A DNA stretch of 41,764 nt from Patescibacteria group bacterium (GTDB lineage Bacteria > Patescibacteriota > Patescibacteriia > UBA11705 > JABHMO01). Shown here piece by piece: positions 5,868 through 41,622 of the stretch. The notes beneath the pieces were generated by a model. It did not search any database. It saw only the letters and a list, made by a program, of their open reading frames with translations, and was not told where the DNA came from. The position numbers and the translations under genes are program-made. The stretch's first letter is position 1; each line of letters begins with the position of its first letter. The stretch covers positions 1 to 41,764 of the forward strand of contig JAHIRY010000027.1 in NCBI GenBank assembly GCA_018818405.1, in the 5' to 3' direction.

Positions 5868-5875
5868 CAACAAAC

Positions 5876-5909
5876 AAAAAACGCGAGAATTAATTTCTCG
5901 CGTTTTTTT
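5876..5909. terminator. Bidirectional intrinsic terminator
   Basis: A6-CGCGAGAA-TTAAT-TTCTCGCG-T7. Confidence 0.88.
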
Positions 5910-6060
5910 ATCTTTGCATTTTAAAATAAAACTCCCCTCCAATGGACAGACAAAAAATTTTTACTCAGGCGAAATCGAGCAAAAAGCCTGATTTAACCTA
6001 AAGTAAAAATCCCATGCTTGTCGTGTCTGTCCGTTGGAGAGGACTTTGTTCTAATTTAAC
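5876..6060 (-). ncRNA. Candidate structured small RNA, ~185 nt, unknown class
   Basis: 19-bp outer stem 5934-5952/6024-6042 with two nested stems. Lies between the promoter at 6066-6094 and the terminator at 5876-5909. Confidence 0.5.
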
Positions 6061-6065
6061 TCTTA

Positions 6066-6094
6066 ATTTTAGCATTCTTTTCAGATGTTGTCAA
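6066..6094 (-). promoter_or_regulatory. sigma70 promoter with no downstream CDS
   Basis: TTGACA-17-TAAAAT with extended -10 TG on the minus strand. Confidence 0.7.
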
Positions 6095-6218: not shown

Positions 6219-6794
6219 TTATTTAATGATCTTATCGATCAACCCATACTCCTTTGCTTCTTCCGCAGTCATATAATAATCCCGATCAGTGTCTTTTTCT
6301 ACCTTTTTCAATGGCTGTCCCGTATGTTTTGCCAAAATCTTGTCCAAAGTTTCTCTGACTTTTAAAATTTCTTCAGCTTGAATCTTGATATCACTGGCCT
6401 GTCCTTTGGCGCCTCCCATCACCTGATGAATCATAATTTTGGAATTTGGCAGAGAAAACCTTTTTCCGCCAGCTCCGGCTGCGAGCAGAAAAGCTCCCAT
6501 ACTGGCAGCCATTCCCAAGCAAATTGTGGCCACATCCGGCTTTATGTATTGCATTGTATCGTAAATCGCCATTCCGGCTGTCACAGATCCGCCGGGGGAA
6601 TTTATGTATAATTTAATGTCTTTTTTTGAATCCTCGCTCTCGAGAAATAACAGCTGGGCAATAATGGAATTCGCAACCTGATCATCCACTCCTGTTCCCA
6701 GAAAAATGATTCTATCCTTCAATAATCGAGAATAAATGTCATAAGCGCGCTCGCCGTAATGAGTTTTTTCTATAACCGTGGGAATGAGATTCAT
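6219..6794 (-). CDS. clpP: ATP-dependent Clp protease proteolytic subunit
   Basis: [28 protein letters not shown]. Confidence 0.98.
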
Positions 6795-6823
6795 AATTGA
6801 AATTGATAAATAGTTATTAAAAT

Positions 6824-6852
6824 ATTGTATTACAAATATAACACTCCGTCAA
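6824..6852 (-). promoter_or_regulatory. sigma70 promoter of clpP
   Basis: TTGACG-17-TACAAT on the minus strand. Confidence 0.65.
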
Positions 6853-6932
6853 TTCATCAAATTTGTCATCAATAGCTGACACCAATACTACTGTAAATTT
6901 AGACAATCCAACAATAACACACTGCGAAACCG

Positions 6933-6961
6933 TTGACAAAATATGAAAATCATGCTATACT
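6933..6961 (+). promoter_or_regulatory. Strong sigma70 promoter of the candidate large ncRNA
   Basis: TTGACA-17-TATACT with extended -10 TG. Confidence 0.8.
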
Positions 6962-6966
6962 AATAT

Positions 6967-7424
6967 GTTCCTTAAATAAAAAACTTTTATCGGAAAAATG
7001 ATGCAGAGGAGAGAGACCTTTGTCCGCCGCTCATTCACTTGCTTGTCATTTGAATCGGCTCGGACATTCAAATATACATTTTGGCATCTGGGGATTTAAT
7101 TATTTCATTATTGCTCCAACAGCCGAGATATTATTCCTCTCCATCATCTTTCCGATAACAAAAATTTCCGGAAAATGGTGAGGCGAGGCGAAGGCCACAA
7201 TTCATTTACTTTTTGGGCCTTCCCGCCCTCCCTCATCGTTTTTCGGAAATCTTTCCAAAAGAGTAGACAACCTCTTGGAGGGAATCTCTCTCCTCAATTC
7301 CGCAGTCCCAAACTTGATCTTTTCATTTTTTCTGCGGAATCTGTCTACTCCTTTGGGAAGTCCCTCCACTTCCCTACTTCAAAGGGGCGGTTCCTCGTGA
7401 ATCGTCCTTTTGTTTTTTTATTTT
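6967..7424 (+). ncRNA. Candidate large structured ncRNA, ~450 nt, unknown class
   Basis: Three consecutive long stem domains (6987-7158, 7164-7250, 7251-7360), long-range complementarities and a terminal terminator; no credible ORF. Confidence 0.75.
7382..7424 (+). terminator. Intrinsic terminator closing the candidate ncRNA
   Basis: AAGGGGCGGTTC-CTCGT-GAATCGTCCTTT (G-U pairs work on the + strand) followed by a T tract. Confidence 0.75.
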
Positions 7425-7647
7425 AAAAACGGTTTGAATCATAATCATCAATTATCGAAATTCCGTTCAACGAAAACGAACGCAATAAACAAAGATTTTT
7501 GTTCCCTGTGCTTGATATAAAATATCACTTTTCTTCCCTCTATTAATATGCTAAAATATGCAGTATACGAAGATTGCTCGCCAACCATTGTTTTTATTGG
7601 CGAATTGGTTTGCAATCAAACAAAAAACTAATAATTCAAAAAAAAAA

Positions 7648-9909
7648 ATGTCACGCAAAAAAAAACAAAAATATACGGAAGTGGAATATTACAGTCTCAG
7701 TCCTGAAACAAAAAAAGGCATAGTCATTGTCGCGCTCTTCGCCTTTGCCGTCATTTGCATTCTGAGTTTTCTGGGAATTGCCGGACGGGCGGGATTTTAC
7801 CTTGACATGGGAATGGGAATCGCATTTGGCTGGGGTCGATATCTTTTTCCGATTCTGCTAATGCTGATCGGCTATATGATGGCGCGACCCAGCCGCTACA
7901 AAATTTCAATATCAAATTATGTTGGAATTTTTATTTTTTTATTGAGCGTTCTCGGTCTGATGCATTTGAAAATGCCGATTTCCGGTTCGTTTGATTTGAA
8001 TTTCGACGGAATCGGCGGCGGAGTTGTCGGATATTTGGTATTATTCCCATTAAATCTTTATCTGGGATTTTGGGGCGCTCTCAGCATTCTAATCGCGCTT
8101 TTCATGGCAGCTCTCCTGCTGATGTTCAATACCGGATTCGAATTGCTCCTGGAAAAATTAAATATCATCAAACACATTTCGCCATTCAAAAAGCAAGGAG
8201 ACTCTGATGCAGCAGATGAAGAGGATGATGATGAGGAAGAAGAGGAAGAAGAAATTGAAGAAGATTCTGAAAATCAAGCGACAGAAGTGAAATTCTCCCG
8301 CCGAGGAGTTCTGACCGAAGAATCAGCGCCTGTCGGCAGAACGAAAATAAAAACTCCGAAAGTAAGAATCGATTTGCCGTTAACTCTGCTCGATTCAAAA
8401 ATTTCCAAGCCGACCAGCGGAGATATCAAAGTCGGACGGGAAAGAATTCAAAAAACATTGGAAAATTTCAATATTGACGTGGAAATGGATGATGTTCAGG
8501 TCGGACCGACTGTCACTCAATATACATTCAAACCGGCTGAAGGCATCAAATTGTCAAGAATTACAACTTTGAGCAATGATCTCGCTCTTTCTCTCGCAGC
8601 GCATCCCATCAGAATCGAAGCGCCGATCCCCGGGAAATCTCTCGTCGGCATTGAAGTTCCGAATAAAAAACCCGCAATCGTGCGCGTGCGCGAAATTCTG
8701 GAATCACCTGAATTCAAACAACGAAAAAACAACCTGACAATTGCATTGGGAAAAGATGTCAGCGGAAAATGCTGGGTCAGCGATATTGCCAGCATGCCTC
8801 ACCTGCTCGTCGCCGGAGCCACCGGATCAGGCAAGAGTGTTTGCTTAAATACCATTATCATAAGTTTGCTTTATCAAAACAATCCCGATACTTTGCGAAT
8901 GCTCCTGGTTGATCCGAAGAGAGTGGAATTTCCGATTTACAATGGAATACCGCATCTGCTGGCGCCGGTAATTACGGATGTGACAAAAACGGTTTACGCT
9001 CTGCGCTGGGCGATCACGGAAATGGATCAGCGCTTTGACATATTATCAAAAGCAAACAAGAGAAACATTGAAGCATACAATCAAACGGCAAAAGAAAAAA
9101 TGCCTTACATTGTCATAATTATCGACGAATTGGCTGATCTCATGGTGGCGGCCTCAGCTGAAGTGGAAGGCAGCATCATTCGTCTGACGCAAATGGCGCG
9201 CGCCGTGGGAATTCATCTGATCGTGGCAACGCAACGGCCTTCGGTGGATGTCATCACCGGACTGATCAAAGCCAATATTCCATGCAGAATCGCCTTCAGC
9301 GTCGCTTCTCTCATGGATTCCCGAACAATTCTCGATTCTTCCGGAGCGGAAAAACTGGTCGGCAAAGGCGACATGCTTTTCATGACTCCGCAAGCGTCAA
9401 CTCCGCGACGGCTCCAAGGAACTTATTTATCTGACGATGAAACGAAAAAAGTCGTCTCATTCCTAAAAGACGCATTCGGAGAAGAACCTGATTACAATGA
9501 TGAAATAGTAAACAAGCAATCAAGCGCCAGCAGTTTTGATTTTCAAGGCGGGAATAATGATAATGGCGATGATTTGTTCGAAGAAGCCAAGGATGTTGTT
9601 CTTCGTTCCGGAAAAGCGTCGGCTTCGCTCTTGCAAAGACGGCTGAGAGTCGGTTATGCGAGAGCGGCCAGATTGATCGATCTGCTCGAAGACGCGGGAA
9701 TCGTCGGACCGGCTGACGGAGCAAGGCCGAGAGAAATATTGATGGACAGAAATTCAATTCAAAATTCAAAACCGACAGCTCCGCCCCATTCATTTGAAGA
9801 AGATAATGATGAAGAAAACGAAGAAGACGATTCGGACGATTTTGAAGAAGAACCGCCGAAAAAAACCAATTCTTTTCCAAACGAATCCGATGATGATGAA
9901 ATTTATTAA
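7648..9909 (+). CDS. ftsK: DNA translocase FtsK/SpoIIIE
   Basis: 4TM N-domain, RIEAPIPGK, Walker A GATGSGKS, IDELADLM, gamma domain LQRRLRVGYARAAR. Start refined to ATG 7648. Confidence 0.97.
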   Translation: MSRKKKQKYTEVEYYSLSPETKKGIVIVALFAFAVICILSFLGIAGRAGFYLDMGMGIAFGWGRYLFPILLMLIGYMMARPSRYKISISNYVGIFIFLLSVLGLMHLKMPISGSFDLNFDGIGGGVVGYLVLFPLNLYLGFWGALSILIALFMAALLLMFNTGFELLLEKLNIIKHISPFKKQGDSDAADEEDDDEEEEEEEIEEDSENQATEVKFSRRGVLTEESAPVGRTKIKTPKVRIDLPLTLLDSKISKPTSGDIKVGRERIQKTLENFNIDVEMDDVQVGPTVTQYTFKPAEGIKLSRITTLSNDLALSLAAHPIRIEAPIPGKSLVGIEVPNKKPAIVRVREILESPEFKQRKNNLTIALGKDVSGKCWVSDIASMPHLLVAGATGSGKSVCLNTIIISLLYQNNPDTLRMLLVDPKRVEFPIYNGIPHLLAPVITDVTKTVYALRWAITEMDQRFDILSKANKRNIEAYNQTAKEKMPYIVIIIDELADLMVAASAEVEGSIIRLTQMARAVGIHLIVATQRPSVDVITGLIKANIPCRIAFSVASLMDSRTILDSSGAEKLVGKGDMLFMTPQASTPRRLQGTYLSDDETKKVVSFLKDAFGEEPDYNDEIVNKQSSASSFDFQGGNNDNGDDLFEEAKDVVLRSGKASASLLQRRLRVGYARAARLIDLLEDAGIVGPADGARPREILMDRNSIQNSKPTAPPHSFEEDNDEENEEDDSDDFEEEPPKKTNSFPNESDDDEIY

Positions 9910-40936: not shown

Positions 40937-41011
40937 GCCGCCATCGTCTAGGGGTTAGGACACCAGGTTTTCATCCTGGTAACCGGAGTTCGAGTCTCCG
41001 TGGCGGTACCA
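40937..41011 (+). tRNA. tRNA-Glu (TTC)
   Basis: Acceptor GCCGCCA/TGGCGGT, anticodon stem CCAGG/CCTGG with loop TTTTCAT, GTTCGAG T-loop, encoded CCA. Confidence 0.97.
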
Positions 41012-41047: not shown

Positions 41048-41187
41048 ACTGAAAAAACATCTAATTGCTTTCAATATTCCAAAAATCGCCAACACATCAT
41101 TTAGCTGCTGCCATTGACAAAACCGCGGCTGTAATATAATATTCAAAGTAATCGCCAGGTCATTCTCAGCAGACACAAGGAGCAGAC

Positions 41188-41622
41188 ATGCGCACCAACC
41201 AACTGATCGAGTTCAGAAAAAAGCGAGAAAAAATTCTGAGAGAGTTGGACGCGGAAATTCGTTCAATGGCATCTGGCTTGTGGGATCGAATCCCCGCTGA
41301 ACTGCACAATTTCCGTTTCCAATTCTGGGGAAATGAAGTCGGATTTTTCAAATGGCTCAATGCCATCACAAAAGATCATACAGAATATCCTGCGCCAACG
41401 GGCTTGAAGTATGGACTTCCGGTTTTCTACTGCGCAAGAATTTTGAAAGATAACCTCGGAAATAACGGCTTCACCTCGCAGGAACAGGCAAAACAATGTT
41501 TTGAACAGCTCAGTCGTCACTGGAAAGGGGTTCTACAAACTGAAGTGAGAATTATGCCAAATAATTGCATCGAAATCTATTTCATGATCGATGATCCCGC
41601 GTTTACTCAGTCCGCGGACTGA
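41188..41622 (+). CDS. Orphan protein
   Basis: AAGGAG SD; TTGACA (41114)-17-TAATAT promoter. Confidence 0.7.
   Translation: MRTNQLIEFRKKREKILRELDAEIRSMASGLWDRIPAELHNFRFQFWGNEVGFFKWLNAITKDHTEYPAPTGLKYGLPVFYCARILKDNLGNNGFTSQEQAKQCFEQLSRHWKGVLQTEVRIMPNNCIEIYFMIDDPAFTQSAD

Follow-up and report, generated by a model that had tools for sequence, protein, structure and literature searches.

The question raised by this locus is what lies between clpP and ftsK in a Patescibacteria group bacterium (GTDB lineage Bacteria; Patescibacteriota; Patescibacteriia; UBA11705; JABHMO01), on a stretch of 41,764 nucleotides (nt) that corresponds to contig JAHIRY010000027.1 of assembly GCA_018818405.1 and is referred to here as the window. 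A first-pass annotation, made by a model from the letters of the sequence, had seen a strong promoter and a terminator enclosing three abutting domains (D1, D2 and D3) and had inferred an undescribed, large structured non-coding RNA (ncRNA). This inference is supported by the lack of any match in Rfam 15, by covariation among homologues, and by a search of the full-text literature, in which no paper describing this RNA was found. Positions 6933–7419 of the plus strand are a self-contained, single-copy gene for a structured RNA of ~450 nt, a new large modular ncRNA without a catalogued family and restricted to one order of Patescibacteria, a small group of ultra-small bacteria of groundwater type. 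The comparisons reported here show that it has its own promoter and terminator, that the D1/D2/D3 fold is kept by compensatory changes and that it occurs once per genome in this order.

Both of the proposed gene boundaries were borne out. The promoter (6933–6961, plus strand, as are all features of the RNA) consists of a −35 element TTGACA (6933–6938), a 17-nt spacer and a TG-extended −10 element TGCTATACT (6953–6961; TATACT), and agrees with the consensus at 11 of 12 positions. A promoter of like type precedes 20/20 homologues. The predicted 5′ end of the RNA, placed according to the promoter spacing, and a boxA-like motif GUUCCUUAAAU are found at 6967–6977. Transcription would end at an intrinsic terminator composed of a hairpin with 14 pairs (7380–7412) and a U-run (7413–7419), encoded by a T-run. 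Across the homologues, 15/15 stem pairs of this hairpin have changed on both sides and, by reading of the sequences, the loop retains C-N-N-G-U in many relatives.

The segment 6965–7424 folds on the plus strand at −177 kcal/mol, as compared with −107.5 ± 5.6 for dinucleotide shuffles (z = −12.5, 0/100 as good), while the minus strand reaches z = −7.4. The same preference is seen with the individual elements, namely D2 (−48.1 on the plus strand, −36.5 on the minus strand) and the terminator (−17.6 and −5.7, respectively). Every helix named in the first-pass annotation could be located in the sequence where it had been placed. D1 (6987–7158) is a three-way-junction module with a closing stem (6987–7010/7135–7158) that is complementary at 22/24 positions (92%). 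A purine tract, GAGGAGAGAGA (7006–7016), caps this stem with its first 5 nt and extends into the junction with its last 6 nt. There follow hairpin a (7021–7066; UGUCCG...CGGACA), taken from the local fold, a linker (7067–7078) that reads UUCAAAUAUACA here and, according to the alignment, CUAUCAUCAACA in most relatives, and hairpin b (7081–7127), in which GGGGA and GCUCC flank an A+U-rich apical loop. Hairpin a is variable and G+C-rich in relatives, where the presence of a hairpin at this position was established by reading the sequences only; the frame of hairpin b, GGGA...UUGCCC, recurs in relatives and also in a module from another family (G135, see below). The inner stem ATTTGAAT/ATTCAAAT (7048–7055/7066–7073) that had been proposed for D1 is present in the window but is not part of the conserved structure, since the stretch used by its ATTCAAAT arm corresponds, in the alignment, to a linker for which the predicted folds of the relatives show no pairing.

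D2 (7164–7250) is a long hairpin that represents the short module type, its arms lying inside 7160–7254. D3 (7251–7360) has an outer stem (7251–7269/7342–7360) that encloses an internal loop as well as an inner hairpin. The internal loop contains a pyrimidine tract, UCUCUCUCCUC (7285–7295), the perfect complement of 7006–7016. The inner hairpin (7297–7340) has a stem of 9/9 pairs (7297–7305/7332–7340) and a loop with a second boxA-like motif, UUGAUCUUUUCAU (7314–7326). An alternative hairpin, P4 (7355–7374; GGGAAGU/ACUUCCC with the loop UCCCUCCA), uses as its 5′ strand the 3′ strand of the lower D3 stem.

Covariation among homologues was found in the D1 closing stem, in D2, in D3 and in the terminator, judged against slid and shuffle controls. 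In the D3 outer stem and terminator, 28/34 pairs changed on both sides and 93.9% of the cells were paired (slid controls 43–54%; 0/500 shuffles), in a set of 20 rows made up of 19 members and one unrelated small RNA of G011. For the D3 outer stem alone these values were 13/19 pairs and 95.3% of cells. The closing stem of D1, compared over 25 modules, had 14/20 pairs changed on both sides and 92.9% of the cells paired (slid 37–61%; 0/500 shuffles); D2, compared over 17 homologues, had 18/23 and 92.7% (slid 43–51%; 0/500 shuffles). Because the homologues are related, the shuffle counts cannot be read as probabilities; relatedness is preserved in the slid controls, which are nonetheless far below the observed pairing. 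The stem sequences of the inner D3 hairpin and of P4 differ in nearly every genome, with pairing always kept.

When 61 related genomes were searched at the DNA level, the matches were partial and chiefly to the 3′ third of the RNA, and distant families were matched mostly at the shared promoter. Two covariance models were used, R1 for D3 and the terminator, built from ten loci, and R2 for the D1-type module. R1 returned exactly one forward match per genome in 15/16 genomes of the family and in 20/26 genomes of the order, with scores of 52–174 bits on the forward and 28–43 bits on the reverse strand. In a sample of 151 genomes of the class it matched only in three, all belonging to the RNA's own order. 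In G020 and G023, inspection revealed mini forms before ftsK that R1 had missed, and that of G023 was confirmed by R2 at 35.9 bits. No match was obtained with the covariance models in four genomes of the order (G008, G018, G021 and G025). In G018 (family f4), a promoter, a G+C-rich structured RNA and a terminator occupy the equivalent place upstream of ftsK (locus L117), but have diverged beyond the reach of R1 and R2. Named genome records, scanned with a motif pattern whose second gap was too narrow, yielded 18 loci, eight of them with R1 matches; three of these are in records of Candidatus Falkowbacteria or Parcubacteria group bacterium, a taxon within the Patescibacteria group. A metagenome scan added 27 loci, 19 of which have R1 matches of at least 65 bits, and viral contigs gave zero matches to the motif pattern.

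Full-length homologues measure 256–801 nt and one metagenome form 822 nt. Members of the family are composed of one to three long D1-type modules (~150–190 nt), in most cases together with one short D2-type hairpin (~75–100 nt), and all end with D3, P4 and the terminator. Family f3 has mini forms (~250 nt); here the outer stem of D3, together with a U-run, itself serves as terminator. The D1-type module consists of a 20–24-base-pair (bp) closing stem capped by GAGGA/UCCUC, followed by the junction GAGAGA, hairpin a, the linker CUAUCAUCAACA and hairpin b with its A+U-rich loop. Outside the order, R2 matched in 4/148 sampled genomes. One of these matches, in G135 (46.8 bits), is convincing; the module there follows a promoter of its own and is joined to a different 3′ domain, and ftsK is not nearby. 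The matches in G032, G100 and G079 (27–32 bits) were left as unproven relatives. In G032 and G100 (loci L122 and L124, family f11) the weaker D1-like hairpin stands after a promoter and before a tRNA-like T-arm/acceptor element as well as a long structured stretch rich in G+C, loci at which nothing was named by ARAGORN or Rfam. A further D1-type module, at a second locus of G023 (L132; G023:C5, ~41159–41321, minus strand; 42.5 bits), forms part of the 5′ leader of an open frame that is very basic, rich in G+C and provided with a strong Shine-Dalgarno (SD) motif, in a genome that is otherwise A+T-rich.

The RNA was compared with all 4227 models of Rfam 15, including RNase P, transfer-messenger RNA (tmRNA), signal recognition particle (SRP) RNA, 6S, OLE, GOLLD, ROOL, HEARO, raiA, riboswitches and ribozymes. 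Within the window only a tRNA at 40937–41008 was returned, so that, as the first-pass annotation had expected, nothing in the RNA region reached a gathering score. With E up to 10 this region gave 12 chance-level matches, the best to mir-4847 (29.6 bits against a threshold of 100), and the 19 homologous loci searched with E up to 0.1 gave a single chance miRNA match. The claim that signatures of RNase P, tmRNA and SRP are lacking agrees with this result. RNase P RNA and tmRNA were rejected as identities, the genome's own copies being located at G000:C12:1972–2389 (101 bits) and G000:C14:1837–2219 (135.5 bits). No conserved open frame was detected among the 20 homologues, and a protein-coding reading was rejected because the longest stop-free stretches vary in position and strand. 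A mobile or repeat element was likewise rejected, as the stretch is single-copy within its 1.06-Mb genome and the motif pattern was without match in viral contigs.

Two pairings between domains had been suggested as pseudoknots or a switch. The first, GAGGAGAGAGA/UCUCUCUCCUC (7006–7016/7285–7295), comprises 11/11 pairs here and stood up to comparison, being conserved in 19/20 homologues, with 9–14 contiguous pairs possible between the purine and pyrimidine tracts in 19/20 genomes. Neither the 11-mer GAGGAGAGAGA nor its complement occurs elsewhere in the genome, and the purine tract is retained in every D1-type module. Compensatory changes were seen from G-C to A-U in G014, from A-U to G-C in G004 together with its relative from a metagenome, and from A-U to U-A in G005. 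As the variable positions are in the GAGAGA half of the tract, outside the D1 closing stem, a helix of 6–8 bp between the D1 junction and the D3 loop would be compatible with both stems and could form as a pseudoknot. With near-universal complementarity and limited covariation, the proposed long-range helix is shown in part. The second pairing, TGGAGGGA/TCCCTCCA (7276–7283/7361–7368), is perfect in the window (8/8), yet is found in only 2/20 homologues and is not supported. An alternative pairing that the first-pass annotation had not noted is conserved. The lower D3 stem and P4 share 5–11 nt in 19/20 rows, G017 being doubtful in this respect (its 'P4' is the U-run tail), whereas G003 shares none. 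By virtue of this shared strand the two helices are mutually exclusive, and both are maintained.

Both boxA-like motifs, that of the 5′ end and that of the D3 loop, were compared with the consensus GYTCTTTAANA, as given in PMC5725501; the E. coli rrn leader reads CAC-UGCUCUUUA-ACAAUUUA (PMC2724277). At least 9/11 agreement with this consensus is present within the first ~25 nt in 12/20 related homologues and in the D3 loop in 10/20, against a background of ~0.1% per position or ~2% per 20 positions; owing to their relatedness these homologues do not provide independent counts. The homologue transcripts start with GUU(C/A)UUUAA-like words, and the heptamer G[AU]UCUUU is found in 15/20 loops of the D3 inner hairpin. 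The ribosomal RNA (rRNA) leaders of four relatives and of the genome itself show CAC-N-GA(U/A)C(U/A)UU... directly after their promoters, similar to the CAC-UGCUCUUUA of E. coli, and those of the relatives carry GAUCUUU. The genome encodes NusB (129.8 bits); a Rho RNA-binding domain was not found in it. Apart from boxA, a short-word BLAST against rRNA leaders and spacers of four genomes produced only chance 6–9-mers and one 13-mer in G019. From these comparisons of motifs, a role for boxA is a testable lead and not a finding.

As to what the RNA does, we lean, with modest assurance, towards an independently transcribed and terminated, trans-acting modular RNA in which the D1 modules are the working units, the domains are clamped by the tract helix and NusB-S10 is a possible partner. 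According to this model, the purine tract of the D1 junction would pair with the pyrimidine tract of the D3 loop, and the resulting long-range pseudoknot would clamp the 5′ and 3′ domains together. The mature, terminated RNA might then act in trans as a scaffold or decoy, with the repeated D1-type modules as binding units. NusB-S10 may bind both of the boxA-like motifs as it does on rRNA leaders, and such binding could help the long-range fold during transcription or could hold these proteins. CsrB/RsmZ and CrcZ are modular protein-sponge small RNAs built of short hairpins. The present RNA shares with them repeated units with a short purine-rich motif, a unit number that varies between species, and its own promoter and terminator; it differs in that the units are three-way junctions of 150–190 nt and the motif is partly base-paired.

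Several observations weigh against this reading. The transcript and its 5′ end are predicted; contigs of three groundwater metatranscriptome runs from the same study contained only short pieces (90–95%) on clpP and the far end of ftsK and nothing over 6602–8075, which is no evidence either way. Genome-wide, 129 promoter-like sites match TTGACA-16/18-TATAAT at 11/12 positions or better, many of them TG-extended; near-consensus promoters are apparently the rule in this organism, and the promoter is thus no proof of high expression. Eight of these 129 sites have an equally good boxA match downstream. The likeness to the consensus is moderate in the window itself, 9/11 at the 5′ end and only 7/11 in the D3 loop, and the motif differs at 2–3 positions from the genome's own rRNA boxA, found with its promoter at G000:C30:19592–19719. 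Most tract positions are invariant, and the three or four compensatory events occurred among related sequences. In multi-module RNAs up to four purine tracts are present per pyrimidine tract, so that pairing in cis cannot be the whole story. Moreover, D1-type modules also occur in other settings, where they precede unrelated genes. Finally, the position of ftsK, co-oriented and downstream in 20/20 genomes and in the 9/9 metagenome loci with enough sequence, fits a role in cis at least equally well.

This last arrangement is the strongest argument for the main rival, a cis-acting leader of ftsK, to which we assign a real but minor chance. On this account a strong promoter would send polymerase into the RNA, where it would stop at the terminator or read through into ftsK, with the balance set by alternative helices or by a boxA-loaded, termination-resistant polymerase. 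The neighbours were identified with Pfam as ClpP (6219–6794, minus strand) and FtsK (7648–9909, plus strand), and the constancy on the ftsK side is not matched by clpP, which is upstream in only 15/20 genomes. Two mutually exclusive, conserved helices stand directly before the terminator, the boxA-like motifs are present, the D3 outer stem doubles as terminator in family f3, and the second G023 locus places a D1-type module in the 5′ leader of a protein gene. However, an extended −10 element TGCTAAAAT (7549–7557, plus strand), outside the RNA and ~90 nt before the ftsK start, is a likely separate promoter for ftsK. The corresponding TGNTAAAAT element is conserved between the RNA terminator and ftsK in 18/20 homologues, and it precedes ftsK also in G008, in which the RNA was not found. 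The spacer between the RNA and ftsK is 80–323 nt and not conserved. By reading of the sequences no terminator/antiterminator logic could be recognised, as the alternative D3/P4 pairing does not reach the terminator and the strand that it frees has the wrong polarity for the terminator 5′ strand. A boxA would, furthermore, have no Rho to counter, given that the Rho RNA-binding domain was not found, and the genes preceded by D1-type modules elsewhere are unrelated to ftsK.

The same observations bear on an assignment to the riboswitches and attenuators. In these there would be no promoter between RNA and gene, a pairing that competes with the terminator, and a constant class of downstream gene. 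Here a predicted promoter element intervenes in 18/20 homologues and no competing pairing was found, while the downstream gene is constant for the complete RNA and differs for D1-type modules elsewhere. The put RNA of phage HK022 and the EAR element of Bacillus are 70–120 nt long and lie inside operons. Like these, the RNA described here is structured and is followed, in a fixed order, by a terminator and a gene; in contrast, its downstream gene has a separate predicted promoter after the terminator.

A further reading, which we regard as doubtful, sees in the RNA a lineage-specific mimic of an rRNA leader. NusB-S10 would be loaded through the boxA-like motifs, the repeated purine-tract modules and the single pyrimidine tract would fold the RNA, or assemble it with other copies, into a large particle, and this particle would serve as a decoy that ties ribosome-biogenesis factors to the cell-division locus. 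With a boxA-containing rRNA leader, the site of NusB-NusE, the RNA has in common a boxA-like motif soon after the promoter (12/20) and a second one further on, a long, untranslated and highly structured transcript, a possible long-range 5′–3′ pairing and a genome that encodes NusB. In contrast to such a leader, the internal motif is an imperfect match within a hairpin loop and the transcript terminates after ~450 nt, without rRNA. Such a mimic, if real, would found a new class of large bacterial RNA, as the first 'boxA RNA' to stand alone.

It is unlikely, in our judgement, that the RNA associates with itself, the purine tracts of one molecule pairing with the pyrimidine tract of another to give dimers or larger assemblies. 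The retention of the purine tract in every module, even where there are three or four tracts per pyrimidine tract (G022, G024 and locus L095), could be explained in this way, and PMC12286853 reports homo-oligomers of large bacterial RNAs. On the other hand, each mini form contains a single purine and a single pyrimidine tract, and Rfam reveals no relation to those RNA families. Ornate RNAs generally sit in prophage or variable settings, whereas this RNA is without Rfam match, is built of one to three repeated modules and has a fixed place beside ftsK. It nevertheless resembles OLE, GOLLD and ROOL (names as in PMC12286853) in measuring hundreds of nt, in its multiple domains, strong covariation and restriction to a lineage, and in having no protein product and no assigned function.

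A very divergent universal RNA missed by Rfam, either 6S or SRP RNA, is highly improbable: the models RF00013, RF00169 and RF01854 are indeed blank across the whole genome, but the region itself has no match to them even with E up to 10, RF00169 fails in 41/41 class genomes including families without this RNA, such that the SRP gap is unrelated to it, and a three-domain build with one to three modules is unlike the 6S hairpin or the SRP helix as these are generally known. Possibly the SRP RNA of these genomes has diverged too far to be recognised by the model, or it is lost in the pre-filter. 6S RNA is one long hairpin with a central bubble; it is likewise single-copy with its own promoter and terminator, but it does not have the three domains and repeated modules seen here.

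To our knowledge, few large structured bacterial RNAs are without an assigned function, those that were solved held new biochemistry, and the RNA biology of the candidate phyla radiation is almost unexplored. The RNA is of interest because it originates from this radiation with unusually good covariation support, because its repeatable module is also found in other families of the class, and because it carries motifs resembling the Nus-factor site of rRNA leaders. A covariance model would let annotators label the recurrent 'empty' gap of 0.5–0.8 kb between clpP and ftsK.

It had further been speculated that the C-rich linker before the terminator resembles an anti-SD sequence and might pair with SD-bearing mRNAs. 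This idea was not supported. The linker is the loop of a hairpin with non-conserved sequence, and the genes of this genome are mostly without SD motifs; in a survey of 377 genes the upstream regions were rich in A/T, and none of their top 15 5-mers was of the GGAGG type. The genome's own 16S 3′ tail, …AACAACUCCUUUCU (G000:C47:411), has the anti-SD core ACUCC and not CCUCC, as does that of G010, while a CCUCC tail is kept in three genomes of the order's other families. The other two GAGGAGAGAG sites of the genome are both within coding sequence. When the genome was searched for complements, none was found for the D1 linker and only scattered ones for the D3 loop.

Another RNA gene without annotation was noticed on the other side of clpP, downstream of it, at 5875–6094 on the minus strand. 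It has a promoter (TTGACA-17-TGCTAAAAT) and its own terminator, and it gave no Rfam match. A closing stem of ~19 bp (…GGACAGACA / UGUCUGUCC…) surrounds a conserved core that is nearly identical in G011, G002, G023 and G020. This RNA produces weak R1 matches, which are due to an AGACA…UGUCU helix that it has in common with D3.

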